Source: a candidate division WWE3 bacterium
GTDB lineage: Bacteria > Patescibacteriota > WWE3 > 2-01-FULL-39-13
NCBI GenBank assembly: GCA_943354835.1
Contig: CALRDH010000002.1
Location: 42,270-106,269 of the forward strand
Direction: 5' to 3'
Length of the DNA: 64,000 nt
The notes below the pieces were generated by a model. It had not been told where the DNA came from and made no database searches. It saw only the letters and a list, made by a program, of their open reading frames with translations. Every line of letters begins with the position of its first letter. Position 1 is the first letter of the stretch. Shown here piece after piece: positions 8,377 through 36,754 of this stretch. The translations under genes were made by a program, and so were the position numbers.

Positions 8377-8453
8377 GGCCCCGTCGTCTAGCGGTCTAGG
8401 ACATCTGGTTTTCATCCAGAAGATCGCGGGTTCGATTCCCGCCGGGGTCACCA
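8377..8453 (+). tRNA. tRNA-Glu (anticodon TTC)
   Basis: The anticodon arm is tctgg-tTTTCAt-ccaga and the T-loop is GGGTTCGATTCCCGC. It ends in A-CCA at 8450-8453, and its last 9 nt start the island's direct repeat. Confidence 0.85.
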
Positions 8454-9961
8454 AACGAGACATTATCATCTCCAAAGTGCGAAATGTATTGATATAAAGG
8501 GCTAATATGCTGGTTCGAATAGCCTGGATAGCCCCATACCATTCCTGAGGGGAATATCGAACCAAGAAGCACTTTGATCTGGGTAACATTTGATTCCTGA
8601 TATGTTTTTCCAAGATCTGAAAACTTTGCTCTCATAAATTCCACTACGCTTTGGATATTGTATTTGTTCACAAGCTCGTCGTCTTTGGTCATACGAACAG
8701 ATGCTACTTGTTCTTCAATAAGCTTATTTTGCTCCTTAAATACTTCATCACTGTACACACCACTCAAGTTTTTTTGTATTAATGCCTGTCTCATTTCGTA
8801 TAGACGACTCAAATCTACTTCAGCTCGTTCTTTACGAGATTTTAGGTCACTCACTCTCTTATAATAGGTAGTCCTCATCATAGCCAAAAAGGCGTTCAAA
8901 CATTGTTCTGTTGGTGATATTGCTCGTAAATGCTCCACGGTTGAATAATCCATCTCATAGGCTTTAATTGATGGTTCGCCACATCTTTTTCTACAAAAAT
9001 AATATGCATGCTTGTTTTTTCTTCCAGAGCTCCATCCTCCAGTCATGGGCGTACCACATTTCCCACATTTTACGATTCGTCTCAAAGGAAAATCTGGATT
9101 ATTTTGTAGTCTTCTGGGAACAATTGGCAAGTTAGCGCATTTATATCTTCCTGAAATAATATTTTGAACTCTATAAAACATTTCTTCTGTAATCATTGGC
9201 ACATGCTGACCCTTGACCTCTTCTGGATATTTTTCAGAAGTAATGATTCCTGCATAAAACTTATTTTTAAACATTCTACTAAGTGCCTGCATTATTATTT
9301 GATACCGCTTCCCTTTTATAACTTGTCTAACACCACAGGTATTTAAATACTCTGCAACTTCCTTCAATGTAGATTTGCCTGATGCCATCAACTCCCATCC
9401 TCTGCGAACGCTATCCCAATTTTCTGGATCTTTTGTGGCATACCCATCTTTAGAAATGTAGCCAAGTGGTGGTCTACTCGTGCTCAATCCAGACAAGAAC
9501 CGAGCCCGCATGCCGTTTTTGGTTCTCTCGCTTCGAACATCATTATCAAGTTGTGCAAAACCAGCCAGTATTGTTTCTACCAATTTTTCAGTAGGACTAT
9601 CACCAGTCGGTTCAGTTGCAGAGATAAGTGTAATATCGCATTCTGCTAGTTTTTTTCTAATTCCTAAGTAATCAGCTGTTTGCCTAGAAATTCTATCGAG
9701 TCGATAGACAATTACTGCATCAACAGATTTTTTATTCTTTCTGCAATATTCAAGCATTTCAATCAAGACAGGTCTTCCCGTAATGGTCTTTGCTGATTTA
9801 CCCTCTTCACGAAAGGTTTTATTTATTTGGATCCCCCTTCTTTCTGCCTCTTTTGTACAGATCTCCAACTGCGTATCCAATGAAAAATTATCTACCTGTT
9901 CCTCAGTAGACACTCTTAAGTAAATAACTGCTGAGTTTATACTTTTCGGTTCATTCATCAT
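8396..9961 (-). CDS. large serine recombinase (resolvase/invertase catalytic domain, recombinase domain, zinc ribbon)
   Basis: N-terminal AVIYLRVSTEEQ with the catalytic Ser. Also contains RLDRISR and the C-terminal zinc ribbon CGKCGT...CRKRC. The ORF runs through attL into tRNA-Glu on the opposite strand. Confidence 0.85.
   Translation of the reverse strand: MMNEPKSINSAVIYLRVSTEEQVDNFSLDTQLEICTKEAERRGIQINKTFREEGKSAKTITGRPVLIEMLEYCRKNKKSVDAVIVYRLDRISRQTADYLGIRKKLAECDITLISATEPTGDSPTEKLVETILAGFAQLDNDVRSERTKNGMRARFLSGLSTSRPPLGYISKDGYATKDPENWDSVRRGWELMASGKSTLKEVAEYLNTCGVRQVIKGKRYQIIMQALSRMFKNKFYAGIITSEKYPEEVKGQHVPMITEEMFYRVQNIISGRYKCANLPIVPRRLQNNPDFPLRRIVKCGKCGTPMTGGWSSGRKNKHAYYFCRKRCGEPSIKAYEMDYSTVEHLRAISPTEQCLNAFLAMMRTTYYKRVSDLKSRKERAEVDLSRLYEMRQALIQKNLSGVYSDEVFKEQNKLIEEQVASVRMTKDDELVNKYNIQSVVEFMRAKFSDLGKTYQESNVTQIKVLLGSIFPSGMVWGYPGYSNQHISPLYQYISHFGDDNVSFGDPGGNRTRDLLDENQMS
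8445..8531. repeat. attL-like direct repeat: the tRNA-Glu 3' end plus 78 bp
   Basis: The 87 bp are repeated at 36666-36752 with a single mismatch (8497 a versus c). Confidence 0.85.
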
Positions 9962-9963
9962 GT

Positions 9964-10272
9964 TTATTTTCCTTTCAATAAATTTTGTAATGTCATTCCA
10001 CCAAATATTTCCTTTTCAAATTGATCCAACCAAGCATCAATTAAAAATTGAAAATCACTCGTCATGCTCTGGATTTGGTCTTCAGAAAGATGCTCATTAA
10101 GTTCTCCTAAATTCCTGCGGTTTTTCTCAACTTGCGTAACTACTGATTGGATTGGAAAGAGCTTGTCTAGTTGAGAAATTGGTGAACTGATATAGTCTAT
10201 AGATGGATCTTCAACCAATAGTGAGTCAGGAATAGTTGAGGTTTGAAGTTGTGCTGATCTTAAGTATTCCAT
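9964..10272 (-). CDS. hypothetical protein directly upstream of the recombinase; possible directionality or regulatory factor
   Basis: A 102-aa acidic ORF, 2 bp upstream of the recombinase on the same strand. Confidence 0.35.
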   Translation of the reverse strand: MEYLRSAQLQTSTIPDSLLVEDPSIDYISSPISQLDKLFPIQSVVTQVEKNRRNLGELNEHLSEDQIQSMTSDFQFLIDAWLDQFEKEIFGGMTLQNLLKGK

Positions 10273-10365
10273 ATTTATTAACTATATCGATAGAGATAGT
10301 ATATATCCATATCGAGATAGTTGTCAAGTGATTTTTAAGCATAAATCAAAAGGATAATTTGTGTA

Positions 10366-10491
10366 TTTCCCTTTCATTCTTTGACCTAGTTTGTTATACT
10401 CCAAGCAACTATTTTTGCTGGTATATATGGAGTTTTCTTTGTTTTGGCAAACATATTTAGCAAACCCTGACCCACTCATTCTCTTTGGCAT
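10366..10491. repeat. 126-bp direct repeat, copy 1, carrying a truncated copy of the T4CP promoter and 5' end
   Basis: About 93% identical to 11672-11797. It encodes a YMEFSLFWQTYLANPDPLILFG remnant (ORF 10391-10633). Confidence 0.85.
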
Positions 10492-10548
10492 TTGTAAAAG
10501 AAAAATCGTCTCAGATTCTGCCATTTTAGCCCCCGAGCTGTTTCCTCT

Positions 10549-11358: not shown

Positions 11359-11361
11359 AAT

Positions 11362-11671: not shown

Positions 11672-11797
11672 TTTCCCTTTCATTCTTTGACCTACTTTGT
11701 TATACTCCTAGCAACTATTTTTGCTGGTATATATGGAGTTTTCTTACTTTTGGCAAACATATTTAACAAACCCTGACCCACTCATTCTCTTTGGCAT
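11672..11797. repeat. 126-bp direct repeat, copy 2 (the functional T4CP promoter and start)
   Basis: It matches 10366-10491. It contains TTGACC and an extended -10 (TGtTATACT). Confidence 0.85.
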
Positions 11798-14351
11798 ATT
11801 GGGAAGTATTTTCGTGTCTCTTATCCTTGTATTTACAGCGTTAGCGACTGTTGCAATTCTTCTCAAGATCAAGCGTACTCGAAGACTGCTAGAAACACCG
11901 CACACCTACCTTGAGGTAAAACCAACTGATAGAACTCTTAAAACAACACTTACCAACACGAAGCTTTTTGAAATTTTGCACTCTCTGGAAAAACCCTACA
12001 CTTGGTGGGATAAGCTATTGGGTTTTACTAAGCCTGTAAGCTACGAGCTTGTTTCAAGCAAGTACGAGGGTATTCGCTTTATTCTTCGGATTGCTACAGA
12101 AGACGCTTCAAGTATTAAAAAAACACTACTCGCATATCTACCTGGCATAGAGATTAAAAAAACAGACGACTACCTACCTAGTACTACCGACAAACCATAC
12201 GCAATTGAAGAACTAACCCTGAGTAATTCTTTTATTTATCCACTTTCAGAACAGCCACAATTACAGCAGTATGACCCGCTTGCGTATCTGACAGGGTACC
12301 TTACTAAGCTCAACGACTCAGAGCTTATTGCCCTGCAATTTATTTGTACTCCTGTACACACAGCAACGCACAAAAAAATCCTCCAGAAGATTGCAGATCT
12401 ACAGAAAAAAATCCTAAGTAACGAAAGTGCAGATCACATTCTTTCGAAGCATACAGGCTCAGACATCATCAGCTTGCTTGGAAGACTTCTGGCTTTTATC
12501 ATCCTCACCCCTGTAACACTGCTTTCTTGGGTTCTTGGTAACACAAGGCAAGTATTTCCAACTTGGCTTTTTGAAGCACCAATCACCAAACCACTACAAT
12601 CTGGACAAGCAAAAAATGACCTATTGCAAACGATATCCACTAAAATTAATCAGCCACTTTTTGAAGTCACCATTCGTGTGTACATCCAATCGGACACAAA
12701 ACCACAAGAACGATTCAAGGGTATTCTTGCGTCATTTGAATCCTTTGCCACACCGCACCAAACAATATATAGAAAGAAGACAGTCTTTACCTATATTCAC
12801 ACTCCACTGTTGCAAAAATTGCAGTATTTTCTTTTGCAAAACCGCCTGTCACTTTTCTCAAGCCCACTATTTTTATCCGCACTGGAATTAGCAGGTTTGT
12901 ATCATCTACCTCATGTGCTCAACACCAAAACTGAAGACTTACTGCAAGTCAAAAGCCCAAAACTTCCAGCGCCACTGTCTCTTAAAAAAAACAGATCAGA
13001 ATTTGACATATCGTTTGCCACAAATTCGTATGGAGAAACAATCACCCCAATTGGCGTGACTCTCGAGGAGCGTAGGCGACACACCTATATCATTGGTGCA
13101 ACAGGTACAGGTAAAACCACACTTTTATTACAGATGATTTACCAAGATATATGCAAGGGCAATGGTCTAGCAGTTATTGATCCACATGGAGACTTAGCAG
13201 AGCGGTTGATTGGAGTTATTCCAGAAGAGCGCGTCAAAGATGTTGTCTACTTTAACCCCTACGATATTGAATTTCCCATTGGTCTTAATGTACTTGAGAT
13301 TCCAGAAGGGCTTTCAGAAGTCGAGCTACAGCGAGAAAAGGACTTTATTACCTCAACACTCATATCTATCTTTCATAAACTGTATGACGCACGATATTCT
13401 GGGCCAAGAATGGAACACATCTTGCGCAATGTAATTTTAACGGCACTCGAGCAAGATAAGCCAACACTTTTTACTATCTATGATCTCTTAACCAACATGA
13501 ACTATCGCAAGCAGGTAACAAGCAAACTTACCGATGAAGTTCTGAAATCGTTCTGGAAAAATGAGTTTGAAAAGCTTGGTAGTTTTCAAAAGGCAGAGCA
13601 AATCTCACCTATCACCAATAAACTTGGCAGGTTTTTAACAACCAGCATGACGCGCAATATCTTGAACCAGAGCGAGAGCAAACTTGATTTTGAAGACATT
13701 ATGAATAACAAAAAGATCTTGATTTGCAACCTCTCAAAAGGAAAAATAGGAGAAGACACAGCCTACTTCCTTGGCGGGCTTTTTACTGCCAAAATACAGC
13801 TGACAGCACTAAGAAGAGTACATATAAAAGAATCAGAACGCCCAGACTTTTTCTTGTATATCGATGAGTTTCAGAATTTTGCCACCATGTCGTTTGCTCA
13901 AATTCTATCTGAGGCACGAAAGTATCGATTAAGCGTTATTCTGGCACATCAAAACACGGTACAGATTGAGCCTGACTTACTGGAAACAATTATCGGAAAT
14001 ACTGGTACGCTGATATGCTTTAGAACCACAAGTCCAAAAGATGAGGTCAAACTACTTCCAGTGTTTGCGCCAGAAGTTGAGATAGGGCAGATCCCAAACC
14101 TACCCTCATACAACTTTTATATGAAGATCAATGCGCTCCAACCTCAGGCAACCTTTAGTGGAGAGATTGAAAACTTTGTGATTGCAGATACTGAGCAAAT
14201 AAGGGCAGAAGTAATGACTCACTCACAGCAAACCTATGGAAACGAACGATCAACAATTACTCTTTCAAAGGAAACACAGAAAGAGAAAAAGACCCAAAAG
14301 ACTGTAAAAGAAGCTCCGAGTACTGAGAACTTTTTCGAGCAGGTGAAATAG
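11721..14351 (+). CDS. type IV secretion coupling protein-like ATPase (VirD4/TraG/TraD family, TraG-D_C type)
   Basis: N-terminal TM helix. Walker A IIGATGTGKTT, VIDPHGDL, Walker B FFLYIDEFQNF, and ARKYRLSVILAHQN. 876 aa. Confidence 0.75.
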   Translation: MLVYMEFSYFWQTYLTNPDPLILFGILGSIFVSLILVFTALATVAILLKIKRTRRLLETPHTYLEVKPTDRTLKTTLTNTKLFEILHSLEKPYTWWDKLLGFTKPVSYELVSSKYEGIRFILRIATEDASSIKKTLLAYLPGIEIKKTDDYLPSTTDKPYAIEELTLSNSFIYPLSEQPQLQQYDPLAYLTGYLTKLNDSELIALQFICTPVHTATHKKILQKIADLQKKILSNESADHILSKHTGSDIISLLGRLLAFIILTPVTLLSWVLGNTRQVFPTWLFEAPITKPLQSGQAKNDLLQTISTKINQPLFEVTIRVYIQSDTKPQERFKGILASFESFATPHQTIYRKKTVFTYIHTPLLQKLQYFLLQNRLSLFSSPLFLSALELAGLYHLPHVLNTKTEDLLQVKSPKLPAPLSLKKNRSEFDISFATNSYGETITPIGVTLEERRRHTYIIGATGTGKTTLLLQMIYQDICKGNGLAVIDPHGDLAERLIGVIPEERVKDVVYFNPYDIEFPIGLNVLEIPEGLSEVELQREKDFITSTLISIFHKLYDARYSGPRMEHILRNVILTALEQDKPTLFTIYDLLTNMNYRKQVTSKLTDEVLKSFWKNEFEKLGSFQKAEQISPITNKLGRFLTTSMTRNILNQSESKLDFEDIMNNKKILICNLSKGKIGEDTAYFLGGLFTAKIQLTALRRVHIKESERPDFFLYIDEFQNFATMSFAQILSEARKYRLSVILAHQNTVQIEPDLLETIIGNTGTLICFRTTSPKDEVKLLPVFAPEVEIGQIPNLPSYNFYMKINALQPQATFSGEIENFVIADTEQIRAEVMTHSQQTYGNERSTITLSKETQKEKKTQKTVKEAPSTENFFEQVK

Positions 14352-14364
14352 ATTAAAATAAGTA

Positions 14365-14625
14365 ATGACTAAATTTATATTATCGATTCTTTTGGGCATA
14401 ATAGTCGCATTTCTATATGAGAATGTAGCAAGAATTTTCGGTACCAAAGTTTTACATAAAACCGAGCTAGTCATTTGGGGATTCAAACTACACCATAGTC
14501 TTTATGGACTAATATCCTTTGCAATTTACGGCATAAACAGGGATATATTTTTCCTTGGGTTTGGTATTGGAATAATACTGCAACATTCTCTTACTGATGG
14601 GTTCAGATTCATTCAAAAAATATAG
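14365..14625 (+). CDS. small membrane protein
   Basis: An 86-aa ORF with two hydrophobic helices. Confidence 0.3.
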   Translation: MTKFILSILLGIIVAFLYENVARIFGTKVLHKTELVIWGFKLHHSLYGLISFAIYGINRDIFFLGFGIGIILQHSLTDGFRFIQKI

Positions 14626-14683
14626 TTCCAAAAACACCCCAGCCGATTATGAATTTTTTTTTATTTTCTGTCATAATAAAAAC

Positions 14684-15640
14684 ATGTTTTTCTACAATGT
14701 AATAACAGAATTGGTAGCTTCACAGATTTTGTTTCTTGCGCTACTTGAAATAATCTCCTTATTAATAGCAATTTTTGTTTTCAAAATAAGGATATCTTCA
14801 AAAATTATTTTATACAGCGCAATTATTGCTTTTATTCTTTCATTGTTAAGTGTAGTTGTCGTGCGTGGCAACTACGGTGGTATGGCATACCATGAAAGAT
14901 TTGGTTGGCCATTTCAGTACCACAATGTATCGAGAGATATGGAGGGCAGTAAGGTAGCTATTCCATATCAAACAAATTTTGACTCCCTAAGATTTTTTAC
15001 AAATACCGTATTCTGGTGGTTTATTTCCCTTATCTCATTAGTTGTTAGCGTTAATAAGAAAAAAAATATGAAAGCCTCATATTTTTTAGCAATTGCACTG
15101 TTGGTATTTATTTCAATAACTTTACTATTTTCCTATAAAAATCATTTGGGTGAAAAAGAGCTGAATACTGGGGAGCCTTCGGTTAAAACAAACGGTGCTG
15201 CTGAGTATCAAAATAGTAGCAACGAAACAAATATCTGCATTTCTATTTTTTCTGGCATGCCTGATCCTTGCGTGGATCTAACGGAAGAACAAACCGTTGC
15301 CCTTGTTGAAAAAATTGAATCGTTACCAAAGGCAGACAACAGTGCATATATTCCAGATATTGGGCTGGGTTACAGAGGAATAACCGGAAACCTTGCTAAT
15401 AACTTGGATTTAAGTACTGATAAATCATTTATAGAGTTTCATGTCTTTGATGGACTAGTAGCATATAACCCCAATCAAAAGGCTATTATTAGCTCAATGA
15501 GCTATACAGATAAACATAATCCTAACTTGGTTTATAAAGTTGACGAAAATCGTGAATTGGAAAAATGGCTTATTAGTTTGATTGCTGTTGACGCAAAAAC
15601 ACAGAAGCTTGTAGAAGAACTACTTCAAGAATTAAAATGA
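14684..15640 (+). CDS. membrane protein, unknown; possible transfer-apparatus component
   Basis: Multiple TM helices with a soluble C-terminal domain. The track ORF starts at 14597. It lies inside the island operon after the T4CP. Confidence 0.4.
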   Translation: MFFYNVITELVASQILFLALLEIISLLIAIFVFKIRISSKIILYSAIIAFILSLLSVVVVRGNYGGMAYHERFGWPFQYHNVSRDMEGSKVAIPYQTNFDSLRFFTNTVFWWFISLISLVVSVNKKKNMKASYFLAIALLVFISITLLFSYKNHLGEKELNTGEPSVKTNGAAEYQNSSNETNICISIFSGMPDPCVDLTEEQTVALVEKIESLPKADNSAYIPDIGLGYRGITGNLANNLDLSTDKSFIEFHVFDGLVAYNPNQKAIISSMSYTDKHNPNLVYKVDENRELEKWLISLIAVDAKTQKLVEELLQELK

Positions 15641-15647
15641 AAAATAT

Positions 15648-16442
15648 ATGAACAAAAAATATTTATTTATTGTAGTTGTAGTGCTATTTCTTCTAATTGC
15701 CTTTATTTCTTGGGGGATTCATGACCTTAACACTAAGGGAGAAGATTATAGTAACTATGTTAAGGAGAACTACTCAAATATCACAGGAAAAATCATTAGA
15801 ATTGGCGACGAGGATAAAAACATAGCCCTGAAAAAACTAAAGAAGATAGGAGCCACAGATATAAATTTAGCTGTAGCGAGCTACTCAGAAAATTCTGATC
15901 CTAAATATTACCTTCTATACGATCTAAGTGGAATTTATGACGAGGAACTTTTAGCACTTGACCCAGACAATATAGCTGGCAGATGTATCGATATGTTCGC
16001 ACTACCCGACACGAAAAAAGACTCAGTTCCAAATACATATGCCGATGGCATTCAAATATTGTTTATAGATACATACAAAATCCTTGAAAACACTGACTGT
16101 TATGCAAATAGTATTCAAACTAACCCTATTTATACTGAATACGAAAATCTTATAACTATTACAGCTAAAATTAAAAGTGCGACAAGGCCAGCCTATGATA
16201 TAGCTTATGATTACAAAATAGTTATGACTTACGATGAGGCTAAGAGTTATGGGTATGGTGACTCATCTGGTCGTGAAAAAGAGAGTTCCGACATAGTGGA
16301 AATACCCATTACAACTAAGAATCTTGATATTCTAGAAAAACTTGAGGAAACAAAACGTACAAATGCTATAATAAAATTAGAAGGTGTTTTGGAGTGGGGA
16401 TATGCTGAGTCAATGGTTTTTAATGTAATATCGATTGAATAA
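15648..16442 (+). CDS. secreted or membrane-anchored hypothetical protein
   Basis: N-terminal signal or TM helix, 264 aa, no motif. Confidence 0.4.
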   Translation: MNKKYLFIVVVVLFLLIAFISWGIHDLNTKGEDYSNYVKENYSNITGKIIRIGDEDKNIALKKLKKIGATDINLAVASYSENSDPKYYLLYDLSGIYDEELLALDPDNIAGRCIDMFALPDTKKDSVPNTYADGIQILFIDTYKILENTDCYANSIQTNPIYTEYENLITITAKIKSATRPAYDIAYDYKIVMTYDEAKSYGYGDSSGREKESSDIVEIPITTKNLDILEKLEETKRTNAIIKLEGVLEWGYAESMVFNVISIE

Positions 16443-16453
16443 AAGAAAAATAT

Positions 16454-16813
16454 ATGAAAATAAAAAAAATTGTTATCTTCGGAGTAGCCATAGTGTTGTT
16501 AGGTGTCTTTTTACCACGCATCATTAGTGGCTCTGGAGTACGCGGATACCATGGTGAAGAAGAAGTATTTGCACGATTTGCTATGAAACAGACCGAACTA
16601 GCACTTGGCGGCTCCCTTGAGCCTTTACTAATACCAGGTATGTACGTAGCAAGTATTAAACAACTATCCCCTGAAAGTACGTCTTGTGCCTATGAACCAT
16701 TTCTTGTGGAACATAAATACGAGGCAACTGTACGATTAGTATCTTGGTTTGGTATTCCCTATGGAAAAATCGAAATTGACTGCGAAGGGGCAAGTTCAGT
16801 CGAACGCTTCTAG
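16454..16813 (+). CDS. small secreted hypothetical protein
   Basis: A signal peptide, 119 aa, two Cys. Confidence 0.4.
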   Translation: MKIKKIVIFGVAIVLLGVFLPRIISGSGVRGYHGEEEVFARFAMKQTELALGGSLEPLLIPGMYVASIKQLSPESTSCAYEPFLVEHKYEATVRLVSWFGIPYGKIEIDCEGASSVERF

Positions 16814-17013: not shown

Positions 17014-17694
17014 ATGCTACTACCTACAATTACTAATAAACAAAAAGAAATACTTCACTATCTCTATAGATTCAGATTCCTCAACCGTATTCAAATTCAA
17101 TCACTCCTCAATCACAAAGACCCAAAAAATACCAATGTCTGGCTCAAAGATCTTACAACCAAAAACTACACTGGCAAAATCTTCGAAAGAACACCGGGAA
17201 TAAATAAACCAGCACTGTATTACCTTACAAATAACGGAATCAAGTTTTTTAGCTCTGCCGAGGGAGCGGATAAGAAACGATTAAGAAAACTGTATCAAGA
17301 GAAAAGAAGATCTCAAGGCTTCATTGATCAGTGCGTACTCATTGCAGATATATACCTCAAGCTGAAAGCTCAAAATCTACAAGACTTCAAACTGTACACA
17401 CAAGCAGACTTGCCAACAAACTCAGTCATCCGTGATCTTTTACCAAGCTTTGCCTATGTCTACTCAAAAGATGCCAAACTACAGCATCACACTTGCGAGA
17501 TCATTAAAGACGGCACGCCACGGTTTGCCATTCGCTCAAGAATTAACCAATACATTGAGTTTTTTAAAGATCAACCAACCATGCAGATTGTGTTTGTCTG
17601 CCAGTCGCAAAAAATTCTTGCCTTTGTTCAAAAATTCATAGAAAAAATTTCTGAAGAAAGCGAATTGCAAAATATTCATGTAACAAATATATAA
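17014..17694 (+). CDS. replication-relaxation (Replic_Relax)-like protein; candidate DNA-processing protein of the element
   Basis: N-terminal KQKEILHYLYRFRFLNRIQIQSLL resembles PF13814. 226 aa. Assignment is tentative. Confidence 0.35.
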   Translation: MLLPTITNKQKEILHYLYRFRFLNRIQIQSLLNHKDPKNTNVWLKDLTTKNYTGKIFERTPGINKPALYYLTNNGIKFFSSAEGADKKRLRKLYQEKRRSQGFIDQCVLIADIYLKLKAQNLQDFKLYTQADLPTNSVIRDLLPSFAYVYSKDAKLQHHTCEIIKDGTPRFAIRSRINQYIEFFKDQPTMQIVFVCQSQKILAFVQKFIEKISEESELQNIHVTNI

Positions 17695-18606: not shown

Positions 18607-18640
18607 CTCCTTTAAGGGAATAAATTAATAACTACTACCT

Positions 18641-29173: not shown

Positions 29174-29202
29174 TTGACATAAAGATATTCAGTTTATATA
29201 AT
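29174..29202 (+). promoter_or_regulatory. consensus sigma70-type promoter (TTGACA, 17 nt, TATAAT) upstream of the T4SS operon
   Basis: TTGACA at 29174-29179, a 17-nt spacer, and TATAAT at 29197-29202, 58 nt before the pilin-like gene. Confidence 0.6.
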
Positions 29203-29573: not shown

Positions 29574-31316
29574 ATGAAACATTTGATACTAGTATGCACG
29601 ATCATACTCATATCGATTTTCTTAGCACCGCCTGCCTCTGCACAAGAAGATCAAGAAAACTCAGACCCTGACCCTCAAATCACTTGGACTAATGAGTTTG
29701 CTGTAGAAGACGACTCATCCAGTGTTATTTCCTTACTTAAAAACTTTGTAAATGGCTTTGATTCACTCCTTGGTGGCTTTATCTTCTATACACCAGATCC
29801 ACTGGCAGAAACTATCACGCTCAAAGACGGCTCGGCAATCCCTGGAGTCACACACTACAGAAATATTTTTTATCAGATCGCTATTCCTATACTTGCCATC
29901 ATTATTTCGTTTATCGCCATCACCAAAATAGGTTCTGACAACACCTATGAGCTCAAGTCATTTGCTGTGCGACTACTGATGGTCGTTGTGCTGTTTTTGA
30001 CTGTTCCGCATGCACTTTCCTACTCTGTGCAGTTTAATAACTTGCTTGTTACTAAAATCTCAGAAACACAGCAGTTTACTGGCTTTCTAGATGACTACTT
30101 CGAAAAATCCCAAGAAAGAATAGATGCCAATGAAAGTTCTGAAAAATTTGGTATTCCTTCTTTTGACATCGCCCTTCGTGGCGGGATTTTTAAATCACTC
30201 GGTAAGTTTATTGTGCAGGTCTTTTTATTTGCCATCACCTTTTTATTTCTCCTATGTGGGTTTTTGTATCTAGGCTTTCAATTTGTCATTCGTTTTTCAA
30301 CCCTACTGTTTTTAGGAGTGATTTACCCCATTGTGATTCCGTTTGCTCTTGCAGAAAGAACACAATCCATTGTCCAAACCTTTTTCAAAACTTGGTTCAC
30401 CTTTCTGATACAACAACCTGCCTTTGTGCTTGGTTTTGCTATCGCAACAGATATTTTCAGAAGTATTTTAGAATCTCAGGGACCAAGTGTTGGTATGTTG
30501 TTTTTCTACACTGGTTTTTTGTTTTTCCTTGGTGGAGTAAACATGTTGGTGGCTCGCATATTTGGTGATGCCTGGTCTGCTATGTCAAATAACATGATGG
30601 CCGCTGTCTCATCACGAAGCATAATGTCGCCAGTTTCTTCAAGTATTGGTGACTTCAAAAAAGGTGTGACTGGAAGCAAAAGTTTTAGTACTGCCCTGGG
30701 TAACCAGATACGCAATCGATTTTTGACCAAACAATCTACCTCAGAGTTTAACAACTTATCAAACACTGAAAACAAAAACTATACCGCAAACAATGCGGGG
30801 AGTGAGTATAAGGTGCAAACAGCTACAGAACCTCAAGCTCCGTTTTCACAAAAACTTACGCACAAAGGATTTGCCGTTCAAGCAGAAAATTCCAAACAAG
30901 GAATAGTTTCTGTTTCTGGTACTGCATACAAGCACGATGGTGCTCAGGGGTTATCTACATACTACCCAACAATGATAGAAGCCGTTCAAGACGGAGTGCC
31001 ACAAGACAAGCTTAAGCAAGTTGAGTTTGATCATGAAAAATTTATTGATCTTTCTAGTTTTAATAAACTGCATCCCAATCCGCATAACTTCAACGCCATG
31101 CAAGAGGCAAAAAAACAAGGCAAAGAGATCGACTACGCCTATATCAAGGAATCAAGTCCAGTCCACAAAGTACGGCAATTCTTGGAACTTTCAGAAAACC
31201 GCAATCAAGCATTTGGAGTCAAAGGGGTAATAGTAGAACGACACGCCAAAAAAGGCACAGATCCAGTTATCAGGCTGTATACCAAAAAATCATATGAGAA
31301 ACATACGAATATATAA
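29574..31316 (+). CDS. VirB6/TrbL/TcpH-like polytopic membrane protein with a C-terminal extension
   Basis: A signal peptide, at least 6 TM helices in the first 350 aa, and a soluble roughly 230-aa tail. It sits upstream of VirB3-like and VirB4. Confidence 0.5.
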   Translation: MKHLILVCTIILISIFLAPPASAQEDQENSDPDPQITWTNEFAVEDDSSSVISLLKNFVNGFDSLLGGFIFYTPDPLAETITLKDGSAIPGVTHYRNIFYQIAIPILAIIISFIAITKIGSDNTYELKSFAVRLLMVVVLFLTVPHALSYSVQFNNLLVTKISETQQFTGFLDDYFEKSQERIDANESSEKFGIPSFDIALRGGIFKSLGKFIVQVFLFAITFLFLLCGFLYLGFQFVIRFSTLLFLGVIYPIVIPFALAERTQSIVQTFFKTWFTFLIQQPAFVLGFAIATDIFRSILESQGPSVGMLFFYTGFLFFLGGVNMLVARIFGDAWSAMSNNMMAAVSSRSIMSPVSSSIGDFKKGVTGSKSFSTALGNQIRNRFLTKQSTSEFNNLSNTENKNYTANNAGSEYKVQTATEPQAPFSQKLTHKGFAVQAENSKQGIVSVSGTAYKHDGAQGLSTYYPTMIEAVQDGVPQDKLKQVEFDHEKFIDLSSFNKLHPNPHNFNAMQEAKKQGKEIDYAYIKESSPVHKVRQFLELSENRNQAFGVKGVIVERHAKKGTDPVIRLYTKKSYEKHTNI

Positions 31317-32103
31317 AGACGACATACGAACACATATCTTGCGGAGCCTATTTTTTACCGATACGGCTATCGTTTCTGCTGGCATTGTTTTTATATCGGT
31401 TGGCATTTACCTTATTTTTGTCTACGGCTTTCATTTTTTCGATTGGGGGTATTATCTCTCAACACTCTTTGTTGCCATCATCTTTTTTATTGCATTTGTC
31501 AGTCAGAAAATCGACAACCAACCAATTTTTAAAATTGTCCCACGAGCAACTACTTTTTCGACATCTACAAAAGAACTGCGGGTAACAAATATAGATCCGT
31601 ACTTTACTGATTTTCATATTCAAGATGATCTGATTGTCCGCAAAGACAAACTTATTCGAGTCTATGAAATCGAGCCATTCGATATTGCGCTACTCAACGA
31701 ACAAGACCGTGAGCACTTTTTTATTAGACTAAAACAGGCTATTCATGTACTACCAGCGCAAACACAGTTTATTGTGCGAAAGGTACCAGCAAAAAGTAGT
31801 GACTACTCAAAGCACTTCTTTTCTCTCTATGATGATTCGTCTTCTGATCGAGAATCACTCGTGCATGAATATATTGAGAATCTAACCAAACTTGTTGATA
31901 CCAGTTCATTTTTTATTACCAAACACTTTGCAGTACTTTCAGTAAGCTGTACAACACACAAACCACAAGCAGTTGTTGAGGGGGTAAAAAAACTAAACGA
32001 TAGTAGCTCACGACTTACTGCATCTTTGGTAGTGTGCAATATTTCTACAAAACCCGTGATTAATGAAGAGTTGAAACAATTTGTTAGGAGTATTTTACGA
32101 TGA
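31294..32103 (+). CDS. VirB3-like / small T4SS membrane component
   Basis: Two adjacent TM helices near the N-terminus. Its stop overlaps the VirB4 start. Confidence 0.35.
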   Translation: MRNIRIYKDDIRTHILRSLFFTDTAIVSAGIVFISVGIYLIFVYGFHFFDWGYYLSTLFVAIIFFIAFVSQKIDNQPIFKIVPRATTFSTSTKELRVTNIDPYFTDFHIQDDLIVRKDKLIRVYEIEPFDIALLNEQDREHFFIRLKQAIHVLPAQTQFIVRKVPAKSSDYSKHFFSLYDDSSSDRESLVHEYIENLTKLVDTSSFFITKHFAVLSVSCTTHKPQAVVEGVKKLNDSSSRLTASLVVCNISTKPVINEELKQFVRSILR

Positions 32104-34202
32104 TCAAACATTCTATAAAAACCAGCATGCGCACACTACTACAAAATATTCGGAACTTTAGTCTCACCTTTACACTAAAAGATCAAGTTGACTCTCTTAG
32201 CCACGAAAGAGATGTCTATACCGAAGAATTGATTGCTATAAAAAAAGAAACAGACCTACTTAAAACTCGAAATGAGGGTTTAAAGAAACTCGAAGAACAA
32301 GTATTGCAGTCTGCACAATCTACAACAGAAAAGGCACTCAAGGAAGAAATTAAACGACTTATGGAAGTGGTGTCATCTCAGGCTGAAACAATAGAAAAAC
32401 AGCCATTTTTAGGCCATACAGTAGCTAAGATTGCCAAGCCAACACAAGCAAAAAGCAGAACTCCACTTGGGTTTATAAAAAGCTACTTTGCCTTTAAAAA
32501 GGAGCTTAAAGCTTATGAGAAAAAAATCTTGCATGATGCAAAAGAGAAATTTCACTTAGTAGTTGAGAAACGAGATGAAACTATACACATTGATAGAGCA
32601 ACTGAAAGTTCATATAAAAGTGAATATATTGTTGAACACAGTAATTATCTTGATGTGAATGGCAAAGTTAAACGGTTATATTACCTTGCCGATATTCCAG
32701 CGTACCTCAGTCCCTATGTATTTTTCCGTCTTCTGACTTCTTCATTGCCATTTACACTCAGTATTTTTATTGAACCTGCCTCAAGTACTGAACTGCTCAA
32801 AAAGGCACGACAAAGATTGTCTGTTCTTGAAATGCAACAGAATGAAAGACTCAGATCTGGAAAAATACGAGACCAACAAATTGATAAAAATATTGATGAA
32901 GTCATGAGTTTTATAGATGAACTAGTGCACGAGGCAGAAAAAGGTATTGTCTATTCCCTCTATCTACAACTTGAAGCAGATACGCCAAAAGAACTAGAGG
33001 CACTACATAAAGAGCTTCAAAATATTGCGGGAAGCATGGATTTAACATTCAATCAATACACCTTTGGTCAAAAACAAGCGTTCAAAAACTTTTTACCATT
33101 TGCTCAAGATCATGTGCAGGAAAATAGAATTTTACAATCAACTGCAGTCTCATACTTAATGCCGTTTGTTTCAAAACATCTGAATGACCCTGACGGTATA
33201 TTTATGGGGCTGAATGCTTATAACGACTCGCTCATATTTATGGATCCGTTCACCTCAAGGAATAATAATATCAACATCTTTGGTGTATCTGGATCGGGGA
33301 AAAGTGTGACTTCAAAAGTATTGATGAACAGACTGTATATGAGAGGTGTCCAAATTTTAGCAATTGATCCAGAAGGCGAATATGTAAACCTTGCAAAATC
33401 GCTCGGTGGAGAGGTGATTCAGTTTTCCAGAGAAAATGGTATCAATCCTTTTCATATCAACAGCACCAGAGAAAACGATATTCTCGATCACATCTCGACA
33501 CTCAAAACATTCTTTAAGTTTTTTATTCCTCAAGATCACTACGATGGAGCTGTGCTTGATGAACATTTAATTACACTCTATGACTCTAGTACACCAAACT
33601 TTGAAAACTTACTAGAACTATTGGGCACACACCCTATGGCAAAAGATTTAAGCGTGTTGTCTACTGGAAGCTTGCGAGGAATATTTAATTCAAAGCGAAA
33701 ACTAGAACTAGATAATAATTTCATTGTTTTTGATCTGCATGACCTCAAAAAAGACGAGAAGCGTGAGCCTGCCATGTACCTTTTGACTTCACTTATCTGG
33801 AATCTGATCAATATACAAAATGGCAAAAAGCGCATGCTTTTTATTGATGAAGCCCACAAACTACTCGTTGATCCAGAGGTTGCAGTTTTCTATAGAGAAC
33901 TAGTCAAGCAAGCACGAAAAAGAAACACGGGAGTTGTCTCAATTACTCAGGATGTTGAGGACTTTTTACATAACGACTACGGCAAGGCGATTATCACAAA
34001 CTCTGAAACTAAGATTTTGCTAAAACAATCCTATGCTGCATTATCTGAAATAGGGACAATCTACCCTATGACTGATGAAGAAAAGCAACAACTCGGGCAT
34101 CTGGGCATTGGTGAAGTAATTCTTTTTAGAGAAGCAGAGCACCTACGACTCAATACGATTGTACTTCCATTTGAGAAACCACTTGTTTTTACCAGTGATT
34201 AA
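32100..34202 (+). CDS. virB4: VirB4/TrbE/TcpF-family type IV secretion ATPase
   Basis: Walker A IFGVSGSGKSVT, AIDPEGEY, Walker B LFIDEAHKLL, and ITQD. 700 aa. Confidence 0.85.
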   Translation: MIKHSIKTSMRTLLQNIRNFSLTFTLKDQVDSLSHERDVYTEELIAIKKETDLLKTRNEGLKKLEEQVLQSAQSTTEKALKEEIKRLMEVVSSQAETIEKQPFLGHTVAKIAKPTQAKSRTPLGFIKSYFAFKKELKAYEKKILHDAKEKFHLVVEKRDETIHIDRATESSYKSEYIVEHSNYLDVNGKVKRLYYLADIPAYLSPYVFFRLLTSSLPFTLSIFIEPASSTELLKKARQRLSVLEMQQNERLRSGKIRDQQIDKNIDEVMSFIDELVHEAEKGIVYSLYLQLEADTPKELEALHKELQNIAGSMDLTFNQYTFGQKQAFKNFLPFAQDHVQENRILQSTAVSYLMPFVSKHLNDPDGIFMGLNAYNDSLIFMDPFTSRNNNINIFGVSGSGKSVTSKVLMNRLYMRGVQILAIDPEGEYVNLAKSLGGEVIQFSRENGINPFHINSTRENDILDHISTLKTFFKFFIPQDHYDGAVLDEHLITLYDSSTPNFENLLELLGTHPMAKDLSVLSTGSLRGIFNSKRKLELDNNFIVFDLHDLKKDEKREPAMYLLTSLIWNLINIQNGKKRMLFIDEAHKLLVDPEVAVFYRELVKQARKRNTGVVSITQDVEDFLHNDYGKAIITNSETKILLKQSYAALSEIGTIYPMTDEEKQQLGHLGIGEVILFREAEHLRLNTIVLPFEKPLVFTSD

Positions 34203-34208
34203 TACAGT

Positions 34209-34976
34209 ATGAAAGCACTCGGTTACGCACATGCTTTTAAAAAGCTCAAAGAAGACCCATTCGGAGTTGCTGTTGATGCTCTGATTACTGTTGTGGTGCA
34301 TATATTTTCGCCACTTCCTATACCCGGCGCACTTGTGGCGCAGTTTAAAGTTCCTATTCTTGGATTTTTAGCGTCTCTAGCTATTTTATTCTTCTTCATG
34401 ATTATGCTTGTTGGTACAGTTTTTATGTCGCCACTGATTGTCAGCTCTGGATACTGGACAGAATTTATTTCACATTTTCAGGATCAAGAGGGAGAATATC
34501 AATCTGATTCTGGATTTACTCAAACACAAATTCCAAAACAAAGCCCACTCGGAGGATCAGGGATGAATTTTGTCACAGTAACTGCTTATTTTTTAGATCC
34601 AAGTTATTATCTGCAATTTGGAAGAAATCATACAGGTATTGATCTTGTTCCATCAGATTCTTACTATCAAAATAGCCAAGCATACAAAGACACGGGTGAA
34701 GTAGTAACCTTTGCAACAATTAATGGAAATGTCCGCTACTACATTGACCAATATGGCGGGAATACCGTTGAAATCACTAGTGATAACGGCTCAATTCAAG
34801 TACTTTACATCCATTTTAGTAGAGTTTTGGTTCAATCTGGTAAGGTAACGGCGGGCACTCCGATTGGAATTATGGGAGATACGGGTAATGCGACAGGTGA
34901 ACATGTACACTATGAAGTACGCACTAAAAATGGTAATAACTGGCAGGCGGTAAATCCGTTAAACTATATAGAGTAA
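34209..34976 (+). CDS. M23/LytM peptidoglycan endopeptidase; T4SS-associated cell-wall hydrolase
   Basis: HTGIDL, and GTPIGIMGDTGNATGEHVHYEV with the HxH zinc site. It has an N-terminal TM region. Confidence 0.8.
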   Translation: MKALGYAHAFKKLKEDPFGVAVDALITVVVHIFSPLPIPGALVAQFKVPILGFLASLAILFFFMIMLVGTVFMSPLIVSSGYWTEFISHFQDQEGEYQSDSGFTQTQIPKQSPLGGSGMNFVTVTAYFLDPSYYLQFGRNHTGIDLVPSDSYYQNSQAYKDTGEVVTFATINGNVRYYIDQYGGNTVEITSDNGSIQVLYIHFSRVLVQSGKVTAGTPIGIMGDTGNATGEHVHYEVRTKNGNNWQAVNPLNYIE

Positions 34977-34977
34977 T

Positions 34978-35781
34978 ATGAAAAAAATAGAACTTAATCC
35001 ACTAGACTCAAATCAAAGAAGATTGCCACAACTTGGAGTTGTACTCGTACTTGGTATCTTTCTTGTGGGGTATTTTTTACTTCGAAAAAGTCCTACGCCA
35101 GAACCAACAACCAAAAACTATGCTGTGTATATCGAGGATTCGATTTTACATGCATTTGACGACACTATATCTATTGCAGAATATCCTAGTAGAGTCTCGG
35201 TACACTACCCATATGCGCTTGTAATTTTACCCAAAAAACAAAGCACTCAAATCTTCAACCTCAAAAATGCATCAAAAGAAAAATCTTTTAATGAAGCATT
35301 GCTAGATTATTCCGAAGGGAAAATCCTGAAAAATACTGGTAAAACAACATTTCTTGATGAACTAGACCTGCAAGTGCTGTGTGAAAAAGGGGTTATAAAA
35401 AGTGATATAGAAGTTTTGTGTCTAACTAAAGTAAATGCAAACACGGTAGAAAACAAACTTATCTCAATAACCATTCCAGATGCTAAACAAAAAGAAATCT
35501 ATGTTTCAAAAGATATCATAACCGACTTTTCAGTTGTAAACGACAAAATATATATCGGGGAAATAAATCTTCACAACAAGCAAAACTACTTAATTATTGA
35601 TGGTACAAAAGTAGAAGTTCCAAGTGTTGTTAGTTTCATCTATGAGCTAGGAGGAGAGCCGTACTATGCAACTCTGAAAGGTGCACTTAGTCAGGAAGAG
35701 AGCTGGTATAAGATTGAAAATAACACTGCAAATAAACTCGATGGTGAGAAAATTTTCCTTAGATATGCTCTAGAGAACTAA
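34978..35781 (+). CDS. bitopic membrane protein; possibly VirB8/TcpC-like
   Basis: A single N-terminal TM helix plus a roughly 230-aa beta-rich domain. The assignment rests on position only. Confidence 0.3.
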   Translation: MKKIELNPLDSNQRRLPQLGVVLVLGIFLVGYFLLRKSPTPEPTTKNYAVYIEDSILHAFDDTISIAEYPSRVSVHYPYALVILPKKQSTQIFNLKNASKEKSFNEALLDYSEGKILKNTGKTTFLDELDLQVLCEKGVIKSDIEVLCLTKVNANTVENKLISITIPDAKQKEIYVSKDIITDFSVVNDKIYIGEINLHNKQNYLIIDGTKVEVPSVVSFIYELGGEPYYATLKGALSQEESWYKIENNTANKLDGEKIFLRYALEN

Positions 35782-35846
35782 TTTGAGAGGTTTTTTATAC
35801 AAACTATCTCTAAAGGATGTATAATTGTAGTCAGAGGTAACTCTAT

Positions 35847-36059
35847 ATGGAATCAAAAAGTCAATTTGGGAAAATTCTCAAGTCTGCACGCCTTAAGTCA
35901 AAAATGACTCAAGCACAAGTTGCAGTAAAAGCAGACATAACAACAAATTACTATGCTCGTATCGAGCGGGGTGAAGTGAGTCCTACAGTTGAAGTTATTA
36001 ACTCAGTAGTGCAAGCTTTGGGAATAGAACTAAACTTCCCTCTTAAAAAGACTAAATAA
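35847..36059 (+). CDS. XRE-family HTH transcriptional regulator
   Basis: A 70-aa ORF. QAQVAVKADITTNYYARIERGE is an HTH_3 signature. Confidence 0.75.
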   Translation: MESKSQFGKILKSARLKSKMTQAQVAVKADITTNYYARIERGEVSPTVEVINSVVQALGIELNFPLKKTK

Positions 36060-36588
36060 ATTTTGAGTAATTCAAAAAATCTATCATTGATCTTGATTCT
36101 TTTGCATCATCAATTCTTCTCATGATTTCTAGACTATTTGTTTGAGATAAAATATTTAAGCTCCCCTCCCATAAGATTTTCTTATCGATAACTGATAGTT
36201 TTCTATGGTGAAAACCATTCAATAATACAAATTTAATACCCATATCCGAATACTTTAGAATTTCATCTGTTGCCTGATAACGATAGAACTCTGTCTCGTG
36301 CTCTGACGGTTCTCTCGTAATGATCTTAATTTTGATGTTTTTATGTAATAAACGTTGAAAGACTTGTTCAAATAATTCCATTCGAAGACTTGTAATGTAG
36401 GGACTTTCAATAATCACTTCACTTGAGCAAGATTCCAAGTCTTTCAAAAATTGCTTATAAAATGTCTTTTCATTAAATAAAACTGGTGCTTTAAAGAAGC
36501 TATGTTGGTTTATCATATAGTTAGTTAATAACCTCCTTTCTCTTCGGGAATGGTAAAGATCGCGAAGGCAGGGCCTCAGGTTTATCAT
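36052..36588 (-). CDS. PLD-family (HKD) nuclease, Nuc-like
   Basis: A single HKD motif, HHRKLSVIDKKILWEGSLN. 178 aa. Confidence 0.7.
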   Translation of the reverse strand: MINLRPCLRDLYHSRRERRLLTNYMINQHSFFKAPVLFNEKTFYKQFLKDLESCSSEVIIESPYITSLRMELFEQVFQRLLHKNIKIKIITREPSEHETEFYRYQATDEILKYSDMGIKFVLLNGFHHRKLSVIDKKILWEGSLNILSQTNSLEIMRRIDDAKESRSMIDFLNYSKFI

Positions 36589-36752: not shown

Positions 36753-36754
36753 AA

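Follow-up and report, generated by a model that had tools for sequence, protein, structure and literature searches.

We analyzed a 64,000-nucleotide (nt) stretch of DNA (hereafter, the window; positions 42,270 to 106,269 of contig CALRDH010000002.1, assembly GCA_943354835.1) from a candidate division WWE3 bacterium, in which a tRNA-Glu gene borders an island carrying a large serine recombinase (LSR), a type IV coupling protein (T4CP), a type IV secretion system (T4SS) and putative defense genes, which we interpret as a probable integrative and conjugative element (ICE) (Table 1). The island spans 28.2 kb and is enclosed by two copies of an 87-nt direct repeat with a single mismatch (99% identity), and such a pair cannot have arisen by chance in 64 kb. 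An earlier interpretation made by a model from the letters alone (the sequence-only reading) had proposed an ICE at 8396 to 36588. All the features that it listed were recovered at or close to their predicted positions through Pfam matches, motifs, and membrane topologies; the idea of a bounded element stood, but its ends had to be moved to the 3' end of the tRNA-Glu gene (8445 to 8453) and to 36666 to 36674.

Table 1. Features of the putative element and its borders in the window; the last row refers to related loci (o, open reading frame; TM, transmembrane)
Feature	Position	Strand	Evidence or remarks
tRNA-Glu(UUC), integration target	8377-8453	+	ARAGORN, Rfam; intact
attL core, last 9 nt of tRNA-Glu, GGGTCACCA	8445-8453		Shared with the element
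Left 87-nt repeat copy	8445-8531		9-nt tRNA end plus 78 nt coding for the LSR C-terminal tail
LSR, 521 aa, catalytic motif YLRVSTEEQ	8396-9961	-	Pfam Resolvase (5.5e-33), Recombinase, Zn_ribbon_recom
o102, small acidic protein just upstream of LSR, co-oriented	9964-10272	-	Synteny
147-nt duplication, 90% identical, flanking a 1.3-kb insertion	10366-10512 and 11672-11818		Covers the T4CP promoter and first ~30 codons
VirD4-type T4CP, 876 aa	11721-14351	+	Pfam TrwB_AAD_bind (2.5e-10), TraG-D_C (2.3e-6)
Four small membrane/secreted proteins (o86; o347 with 5 TM; o264; o119)	14365-16813	+	TM segments
Replic_Relax (MOBC-family) protein, relaxase candidate	17014-17694	+	PF13814
o117, small protein, 3 TM	17703-18056	+	TM segments
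DUF2958 and RadC, backbone accessory genes	18280-19057	-	Pfam, synteny
Dsr1-like defense protein, 1115 aa	19447-22794	-	PADLOC Dsr1 (1e-51), residues 184-1113
Type I restriction-modification system	22766-29022	-	Pfam; hsdS 22766-23962; hsdM split, 23959-24441 and 25224-26273; hsdR 26212-29022
IS1595-family insertion sequence, 730 bp	24502-25231	+	25-nt inverted repeats, 7-nt target duplication AACAGGA, 226-aa DDE transposase; splits hsdM
Sigma-70-type promoter TTGACA-17-TATAAT, ahead of T4SS operon	29174-29202	+	12/12 consensus positions
VirB2/TrbC-like pilin, 94 aa	29260-29544	+	Pfam TrbC (2.7e-8)
VirB6/TrbL-like polytopic membrane protein, 580 aa, 6 TM	29574-31316	+	TM segments; weak PF04610 TrbL match of homologs
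VirB3/PrgI-like protein with TraC/TrsD-like part, 269 aa (o269)	31294-32103	+	2 N-terminal TM and a cytoplasmic domain
VirB4 ATPase	32100-34202	+	Pfam P-loop_TraG (1e-25), AAA_10; motifs GVSGSGKS, IDPEGEY, DEAH read directly
Membrane-anchored M23 peptidase, cell wall hydrolase, VirB1 analog	34209-34976	+	Pfam Peptidase_M23; TM segments
Bitopic 267-aa protein (o267), conserved last operon gene	34978-35781	+	VirB8-like by topology only
XRE-family regulator	35847-36059	+	Pfam HTH_3; after the operon in most loci
PLD/Nuc-type nuclease, single HKD motif HRKLSVID (HxK(x)4D)	36052-36588	-	Pfam PLDc_2; conserved right-end gene
Right 87-nt repeat copy	36666-36752		attR core GGGTCACCA at 36666-36674, then 78-nt relic of LSR 3' end at 36675-36752
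Cargo hot spots in related loci	L049, 19-6958 and 12902-18650; L051, 1-7067 and 13689-14854; L037, 66-7009		

The LSR contains the Resolvase, Recombinase, and Zn_ribbon_recom domains expected from the earlier assignment, and its open reading frame (ORF) passes through the left repeat into the antisense strand of the tRNA (...VSFGDP followed by GGNRTRDLLDENQMS), so that the 78 nt of the repeat lying beyond the tRNA are recombinase coding sequence. A contig from another sample (L048) encodes a 97% identical cluster-mate of this LSR (P0134), with homologs of o102, T4CP, Replic_Relax, and DUF2958 as neighbors, and there the ORF enters a tRNA-Glu(CUC) instead. Nucleotide identity between the window and L048 is 94% as far as TGGTGACCC and collapses inside the tRNA, the stop falling exactly at the tRNA 3' end (GGGTCACCA). 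The two junctions together indicate that essentially the same element resides at two different tRNA-Glu genes, with crossover within their common 9-nt 3' end, and hence that the right repeat consists of an attR core followed by a 78-nt recombinase relic. The island thus has the recombinase and the identifiable attachment (att) sites of an ICE, namely, three Pfam domains, 87-nt repeats with a 9-nt core, and a second tRNA-Glu target.

Since the right repeat holds the relic of an older recombinase 3' end, the sequence indicates that the tRNA-Glu of the window has been occupied before. The present copy may have entered the relic-bearing site through the LSR acting on an attL-like site or through homologous recombination across the 87 nt; both routes are possible. 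Directly outside the right repeat lies a low-GC stretch (36753 to 43483; 0.29 to 0.33) with a gene for a DUF4143/PDC-S01 ATPase abutting the LSR relic, followed by a CPBP protease, a DUF4143 fragment, an AbiEi/AbiEii pair, and DUF2130, and these genes may be the remnant of an earlier occupant of the same tRNA-Glu. A DUF4143 gene likewise stands beside an LSR remnant in another locus (L109).

It is extremely unlikely that this arrangement results from misassembly or contamination, with an ICE from a Firmicute or another organism wrongly joined to a contig of the candidate phyla radiation (CPR). The contigs of one Logan assembly do stop inside both repeats, but they break exactly 30 nt (k-1) into each copy, because the k=31 de Bruijn graph branches there. 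An independent 58-kb ENA contig covers the DUF4143 gene, the right junction, and the T4SS genes into hsdR, and the 443-kb source contig (NCBI, ENA, Logan) spans everything. Moreover, the close homologs of the element genes all belong to metagenome-assembled genomes (MAGs) of Patescibacteria, and the G+C content between the repeats (0.35 to 0.41) is only slightly higher than that of the flanks (0.30 to 0.35).

We then scanned metagenomes with the LSR and obtained 57 loci. Like our other locus scans, this one retrieved only relatives sharing exact peptide words and covered at most 10 kb per side, so the frequencies of co-occurrence given below are lower bounds from small samples. In about 45 of the 57 loci, the LSR ORF runs into the 3' end of a convergent tRNA, the targets being Glu, five Leu isoacceptors, Lys, Phe, Pro, Gly, Val, Arg, and Ala, and a conserved C-terminal motif of the LSR (..ISPLYQ.I......S-F/C) stops exactly at the tRNA boundary. 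LSR genes that read into tRNA 3' ends in this way imply that the attP core lies inside the recombinase gene. The LSR is accompanied in nearly every locus by o102, which matched nothing in Pfam or PHROGs and which, from its position, is probably the recombination directionality factor.

Three further observations bear on the ends of these elements. First, a 3.4-kb metagenomic contig (L090; 1214 to 3320) carries o102, then the LSR, then 121 nt, and then the PLD gene, all on one strand and with no tRNA; its LSR terminates in ...TVSVSWRA, and TGGCGAGCTTGA resembles a tRNA 3' end read in antisense. Such an order is expected when the ends of the window element join, which makes the contig a candidate for the excised attP, or circular form, of a related element. 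Second, four loci (L104 to L106 and L109) retain only 3' fragments of the LSR (the last ~125 codons; at 10001 to 10574 in L104 and L105) beside the tRNA, like the relic of the window, and have the appearance of scars left where elements decayed or were replaced; L104 and L105 also contain, 149 nt from the intact tRNA, a 16-nt copy of the tRNA-Glu 3' end. Third, when the related loci were searched for another occurrence of the tRNA 3' end, of 12 nt or more, that would place the far ends, only these two relic loci had one, which fits the short cores used by serine recombinases.

The T4SS genes of the island form a single operon, and the consensus promoter noted before it in the sequence-only reading matches at every position. 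The labels given there to the operon products (pilin-, VirB6-, and VirB3-like proteins, VirB4, an M23 hydrolase, and a bitopic protein) fit their topologies, Pfam matches, and motifs, the matches to VirB6 and PrgI families being weak. The pilin is 66 to 100% identical in most related loci. The 269-aa protein gave weak PrgI and TraC matches, and its homologs match the TraC-like family PF26593. For the 267-aa protein, an 18-sequence profile had no match in the PDB or Pfam, and a single-sequence AlphaFold2 model had a mean confidence (pLDDT) of 36, too low to read a fold. The best solved relative of VirB4 is the Thermoanaerobacter VirB4 (4AG5; 4.8e-32, versus 4e-5 for TrwK), and the protein is 65 to 96% identical to proteins from CPR MAGs, 43% identical to that of a Saccharibacteria locus, and 23 to 30% identical to VirB4 of conjugative plasmids from Firmicutes and Actinobacteria (Clostridium, Bacillus, Streptomyces). 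No ORF between 8.4 and 36.7 kb had a Pfam match to VirB7, VirB9, or VirB10. A mating-pair-formation (MPF) system with VirB4, VirB2-, VirB6-, and VirB3/TrsD-like proteins, the M23 hydrolase, and the bitopic protein is thus encoded in one operon, and by identity its VirB4 is closest to those of monoderms (FATA) and Patescibacteria, the placement of the clade being taken from the survey of Quinonero-Coronel et al. (2025; PMC12102498).

The T4CP gene lies in the other half of the island, near the LSR. Its product has two TM segments, a family-specific N-terminal domain, a Walker A motif (GATGTGKT), and a Walker B motif (IDEF), and its best match in the PDB is TrwB (7.8e-9), with DotL also matched. 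These features and the Pfam domains bear out the proposed VirD4/TraG-type coupling ATPase and supply the type IV coupling protein of an ICE. They point away from a TcpA (FtsK-like) coupling protein, as no FtsK-type family was matched. The apparatus had been likened to the minimal Tcp system of Gram-positive bacteria; the minimal set lacking VirB7, -9, and -10 agrees with this, but the likeness to Tcp does not hold, since the coupling protein is VirD4-type and not TcpA-type. From these assignments, the T4SS resembles MPF_FATA systems and combines a VirB2 pilin with a VirD4-type T4CP. The possibility that both ATPases are housekeeping paralogs of FtsK or HerA was ruled out by their Pfam and PDB matches (P-loop_TraG, AAA_10, and 4AG5 for VirB4; TrwB_AAD_bind, TraG-D_C, and TrwB for T4CP). 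At the 5' end of the T4CP gene, the 1.3-kb insertion between the duplicated segments contains three small ORFs (o157, o77, and o78, of 157, 77, and 78 aa), the two short ones with signal-like N termini; in L048, the 147 nt occur only once and the insertion is absent.

The sequence-only reading had seen no canonical mobilization (MOB) relaxase. This claim needs correcting, as Replic_Relax (PF13814) is a Pfam family classed as MOBC by CONJscan (PMC5357655), and a MOB-class candidate is therefore visible in the island. The Replic_Relax protein scored 34.2 bits, above the gathering cutoff of 25.3, over profile positions 1 to 117 only (of 191), and many of its homologs are likewise annotated PF13814. 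Examination of its structure for a relaxase fold, as had been suggested, revealed an N-terminal winged helix-turn-helix (wHTH) domain and a C-terminal restriction-endonuclease-like domain (alpha-beta-beta-beta-alpha-beta); the only full-length Foldseek matches were FokI and BstEII, in which DNA-recognition domains are joined to restriction-endonuclease folds, and MOBC relaxases are described in just these terms (PMC12857230). The active-site region reads PSFAY ... CEIIKDG and lacks the canonical acidic residues, and the canonical PD and E..D were found in distant members only (P0333, P0335, P0338, P0348, and P0373). The near-invariant residues in the nuclease-like half are R99, S100, F103, Y114, and R174 (plus Y69 in the wing), none of them acidic, and their conservation may hint at a different chemistry or at lost catalysis.

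The Replic_Relax family comprises 1,209 clusters at 50% identity (E value of ≤1e-3), and its members share contigs with VirB4 homologs at least 10 times, as judged from the lengths of the contigs; a tblastn search with the window protein against 72,556 plasmids gave no match. One protein of 1,232 aa (P0501) naturally joins a T4CP, 43% identical to that of the window over 838 residues, to a C-terminal Replic_Relax domain, and this fusion strongly supports joint action of the two proteins. The window protein is a member of the MOBC family by sequence and fold that departs from the canonical active site, and its activity as a relaxase is putative.

We then looked into how consistently these modules occur together. 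A VirB4 scan restricted to one genome per species gave 42 loci in Roizman-, Levy-, Shapiro-, and Daviesbacteria, WWE3, and further Patescibacteria MAGs. The operon (VirB2, VirB6-like protein, o269, VirB4, M23, and o267) is syntenic in nearly all of them where the contig reaches, usually followed by the XRE and PLD genes. In five loci (L013, L015, L017, L021, and L038), the 10 kb upstream of the operon contain genes for T4CP, Replic_Relax, RadC, or DUF2958, and the LSR gene is adjacent to the operon in another five (L014, L029, L034, L036, and L037), with the order T4SS operon, o102, LSR, tRNA-Glu(CUC) in L036 and L037. Where the upstream sequence of an LSR locus extended for 5 kb or more, the arrangement DUF2958, Replic_Relax(-), T4CP(-), o102(+), LSR(+) was found in 15 of about 21 cases, and a compact copy (L060) has Replic_Relax, T4CP, VirB4, M23, o102, LSR, and tRNA-Glu in a row. 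This recurrence indicates that LSR, o102, T4CP, Replic_Relax, and DUF2958 form a conserved module that is repeatedly linked to the same T4SS operon. A contig from a Saccharibacteria MAG (L044, 1979 to 4357) has homologous T4SS genes (VirB4, 43% identity; M23, 36%) followed by a convergent tRNA-Glu(CUC), and no LSR was found in its 9 kb.

The same data make it improbable that the locus is a composite, in which an integrative mobilizable element (IME) made of LSR, o102, T4CP, and Replic_Relax inserted together with defense cargo beside a resident chromosomal T4SS and the right repeat is an old scar. Such an origin would agree with the right repeat being a relic of an LSR 3' end and not a canonical attR, with the many LSR loci that show the LSR-T4CP-Replic_Relax module alone within the available sequence, with the absence of T4CP and Replic_Relax from the 7 kb upstream of the T4SS in L037, and with the existence of a streptococcal class of IMEs that combines a serine integrase, a MobC relaxase, and VirD4 (PMC5357655). 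However, the T4SS operon of the window is located between the LSR and an att core, and it abuts o102-LSR-tRNA in L036, L037, L029, and L060; the flanking genes of the T4SS block differ from genome to genome; and in L090 the PLD gene, which ends the T4SS block, comes after the LSR as it would in one circle.

Several observations support horizontal spread of the element, with alternative insertion sites, mosaic identity, multiple or decaying copies, and an element identity exceeding that of housekeeping genes. The VirB4 of the window is 96% identical to that of a WWE3 MAG and 85% identical to that of a Roizmanbacteria MAG, whereas the threonyl-tRNA synthetase (ThrRS) of the window is at most 82% identical to that of any genome and 64% identical to that of Woesebacteria. 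A complete Roizmanbacteria genome (CP065004) has VirB4, VirB2, and Replic_Relax proteins that are 74, 93, and 70% identical to those of the window, and its ThrRS is absent from the 120 best ThrRS matches, all of which are at least 57% identical. Identity between the window and L048 copies is itself mosaic (94% on the LSR side versus 76% for T4CP). One MAG contig (CAZTFB010000001.1) carries two T4SS loci, L014 and L029, the latter with the whole gene order of the window at a tRNA-Ser, but with a fragmentary T4CP and a VirB4 lacking its first ~170 residues.

We consider it probable that the window contains a 28.2-kb ICE-type conjugative integrative element, inserted in a WWE3 chromosome and belonging to a widespread family. 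The locus is an LSR-bounded island at a tRNA 3' end that carries a complete T4SS operon of the monoderm type, preceded by a strong promoter, together with a T4CP and cargo assigned to defense by homology; in the WWE3 lineage, the T4SS would travel on a conjugation-type element and would not be a fixed chromosomal feature, transfer itself being putative. Some results weigh against this interpretation. The right junction has the structure P-core-P', which is not a canonical attR and makes LSR-mediated excision from the window site uncertain, and public contigs contained neither a circular form nor an empty site of the window element, the Logan assembly breaking at the repeat. In the window Replic_Relax and the proteins closest to it, PS stands in place of PD and E..K in place of E..D, and the family alignment, in which the winged helix is almost invariant, has no conserved acidic residue in the nuclease core, so that nicking activity is doubtful. 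A search for an origin of transfer near Replic_Relax and in other intergenic regions revealed only weak palindromes upstream of the gene and nothing convincing. Lastly, the same type of T4SS is reported to be essential for epibiotic growth in Saccharibacteria and has been argued to be exapted (PMC12102498, PMC12857230).

The main alternative is a mobile island of another kind, moved by the LSR, whose T4SS serves epibiotic interaction with a host (attachment or traffic of effectors, DNA, or nucleotides), with Replic_Relax acting only as a DNA-binding regulator or T4CP partner and with spread through natural competence or other elements. We regard this as possible but rather unlikely. In its favor, the wHTH of Replic_Relax is nearly invariant whereas the catalytic residues of the nuclease core are not conserved, and the T4SS is homologous to and syntenic with the Saccharibacteria locus (L044), a type of system that is reported to be essential there for epibiotic growth, with a dispensable T4CP (PMC12102498). 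It also agrees with the high conservation of VirB2 and with the survey of Patescibacteria T4SSs, which described them as chromosomal, often near dnaA, relaxase poor, and probably exapted, a view repeated in a 2025 FEMS review (PMC12857230). In that survey, virB4 occurred in ~80% of the genomes, with t4cp mostly distant from it, and MOBscan relaxases in only 103 of 3,035 (about 3%), MOBC being the most frequent and 39 of the relaxases lying near t4cp; recombinases and integrases were not mentioned (PMC12102498). On the other hand, T4CP and Replic_Relax beside an integrase in dozens of loci, and fused in P0501, are hard to explain without DNA processing. The family moreover behaves as accessory DNA: its cargo varies, relics and truncated copies (L029) occur, and one MAG has two copies. 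An essential organelle is not expected on a decaying, site-hopping island.

For the conjugative element that we favor, we propose the following mechanism. The LSR would integrate attP, whose core forms part of the 3' end of the LSR gene, into tRNA 3' ends, leaving the tRNA intact and exchanging the last 15 to 20 residues of the LSR, and o102 would act as the directionality factor in excision. After excision, Replic_Relax might bind the element DNA through its winged helix, process it, and pass it to T4CP. Export would then proceed through a monoderm, MPF_FATA-derived channel formed by the VirB6-like and VirB3/TrsD-like proteins, VirB4, and the bitopic o267, with the M23 peptidase opening the wall and the VirB2 pilus making contact. 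The XRE-family regulator may control expression of the operon, and the PLD nuclease could function in entry, anti-defense, or DNA processing. For o102, the 267-aa protein, the small membrane proteins, and the PLD nuclease, these roles are inferred from gene position.

Among the accessory genes, Pfam matches agree with the earlier assignments of DUF2958, RadC, XRE, PLD/Nuc, and Replic_Relax. DUF2958 adjoins Replic_Relax in many loci, with RadC accompanying it in L015 and L021, and the slot taken by the four small membrane or secreted proteins varies between copies of the element, a C39-like peptidase being found there in L048. Between the two conjugation modules lies defense cargo that the sequence-only reading had not mentioned, with a Dsr1-like protein, whose match is confined to the part of the profile C-terminal to the SIR2 region, and a type I restriction-modification (R-M) system. 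The insertion sequence (IS) within hsdM, a gene that is intact in its homolog from L022, has inactivated this R-M system. The relatives have two cargo hot spots, one upstream of VirB2 and one between o267 and PLD, whose contents differ by genome and include R-M systems, SduA_C (Shedu-like), a KAP NTPase, IS/rve genes, a deaminase, ankyrin repeats, and extracytoplasmic redox sets (thioredoxin, DsbD, DsbA, sortase, and cupredoxin). A prophage was considered as well and rejected, since the ORFs of unassigned function had no PHROGs match and phage structural genes were absent.

The host was proposed to be a CPR bacterium and not a Firmicute with a nonreduced genome, and our results are in line with this. 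The best named relatives of the window ThrRS are candidate division WWE3 MAGs (82, 67, and 62% identity), followed by entries named "Patescibacteria group" (~70% or less) and by Woesebacteria (64%), the only named Microgenomates match among those listed; the relatives of VirB4 were all found in Patescibacteria MAGs. On the basis of best matches and MAG names, the host is a bacterium of the Patescibacteria (CPR), class WWE3. Many contigs carrying T4SS genes 65 to 99% identical to those of CPR MAGs (among L006 to L047) bear public titles such as "uncultured Gammaproteobacteria," "Pseudomonadales," "Flavobacteriales," or "Brocadiaceae"; these are evidently placeholders or misassignments and were not used for taxonomy. 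The flanks of the island contain housekeeping genes for ThrRS, IF3, L35, L20, PheST, a nondiscriminating AspRS, PBP1A, TruB, an LCP transferase, and a short trigger factor, and a search of the window with Rfam returned four tRNAs and nothing else. Traits of a reduced genome were seen in this region (5416 to 7275, 48326 to 49639, 53505 to 55490, and 61841 to 62653), namely, an archaeal-type nondiscriminating AspRS, a trigger factor of 270 aa, and a 661-aa PheT that aligns to the bacterial PheT model only from model position 157 onward. The mechanically called ORF at 5416 to 7275 overlaps a tRNA-Lys gene (5373 to 5448), so its true start must lie later; the corresponding protein has 603 aa in L002.

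The element resembles several known systems in part. It shares with the Patescibacteria-clade T4SS (PMC12102498, which also covers Southlakia/Saccharibacteria as studied by Wang et al., 2023, cited there) a VirB4 nested in MPF_FATA, a VirB2-like pilin beside virB4, a TrsD/VirB3-like neighbor, a divergent VirB6, an M23-type hydrolase in place of VirB1, and the absence of VirB7, -9, and -10. It differs in that the operon is part of an island that is integrated at a tRNA gene, bounded by repeats, and equipped with an LSR, a T4CP, and a MOBC-family protein, a linkage that recurs in many loci. ICEs and plasmids of the MPF_FATA class (pCF10, pIP501, CTn2, and ICESaNEM316) have the same minimal monoderm channel and a VirD4-type T4CP, whereas the window has a VirB2/TrbC pilin for their surface adhesin and an M23 protein for their SLT/CHAP hydrolase, a relaxase candidate that is neither MOBP nor MOBQ, and an ultrasmall CPR host. 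Class 8 streptococcal IMEs (Coluzzi et al., 2017; PMC5357655) combine a serine integrase, PF13814 Replic_Relax, and VirD4 in an equally compact module, but they lack a mating-pair-formation system and are mobilized by other elements, while the window island has a full T4SS operon and a Replic_Relax protein with no plasmid homolog by tblastn and no PD motif. The MOBC relaxases TraX of pAD1 and MobC of CloDF13 likewise consist of a winged helix and a restriction-endonuclease-like domain (PF13814) and are encoded beside a T4CP; the window protein differs in its PS and E..K, which replace the canonical acidic residues. As in tyrosine-integrase tRNA islands and LSR elements (SCCmec, Tn5397, and phiC31-type phages), the target is kept intact and the integrase gene is target proximal, and the LSR has the Resolvase, Recombinase, zinc ribbon architecture of the latter. 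However, tyrosine integrases and not LSRs are the classical users of tRNA 3' ends, and unlike in the known LSR elements, the att core here lies inside the LSR coding sequence, so that the C-terminal tail changes on integration.

ICEs, MPF_FATA systems, MOBC relaxases, and LSRs are all known, and the kind of system is thus not new. What is new is the presence of a CPR-wide type of T4SS on tRNA-integrated LSR islands, the unusual design of integrase and att site, and a divergent, T4CP-linked Replic_Relax as a candidate for the missing relaxase. The searchable full-text literature contained no account of Patescibacteria ICEs with serine recombinases, nor of an LSR gene containing a tRNA-end attP. 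A self-transmissible element had been predicted to be poorly described in CPR bacteria; this is not so for the T4SSs themselves (PMC12102498, PMC12857230), but it holds for their carriage on LSR-integrated elements, which those articles do not discuss. Across about a hundred related loci, this carriage is a family trait, as seen from the alternative tRNA targets, the relics, the attP-like junction, and the fusion of T4CP with Replic_Relax.

The T4SSs of Patescibacteria are of topical interest, being essential for epibiotic growth in the one tractable species and described by the only phylum-wide survey as chromosomal, mostly relaxase free, and probably repurposed. With the family described here, the relaxase, directionality factor, and att sites of CPR conjugative elements have specific candidates that can be put to the test, and the design of the integrase is unusual, as the serine recombinase has the crossover site in the 3' end of its own gene. 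Integrases with known tRNA targets also open a way toward genetic tools for organisms in which manipulation is very difficult. As a tentative joint interpretation, which goes further than the evidence for the single element, the "Patescibacteria T4SS" of WWE3 and Microgenomatia might be the mating apparatus of an active and unrecognized ICE family that uses an LSR at tRNA 3' ends with attP in the recombinase gene; a divergent Replic_Relax, tethered or fused to the coupling ATPase, might be its missing relaxase, possibly with noncanonical chemistry, and defense and redox cargo might be shuttled between CPR lineages, including across classes. If this were true, the chromosomal and essential T4SS of Saccharibacteria would be a domesticated descendant of such elements, and conjugation would be a major route of gene flow among ultrasmall bacteria.

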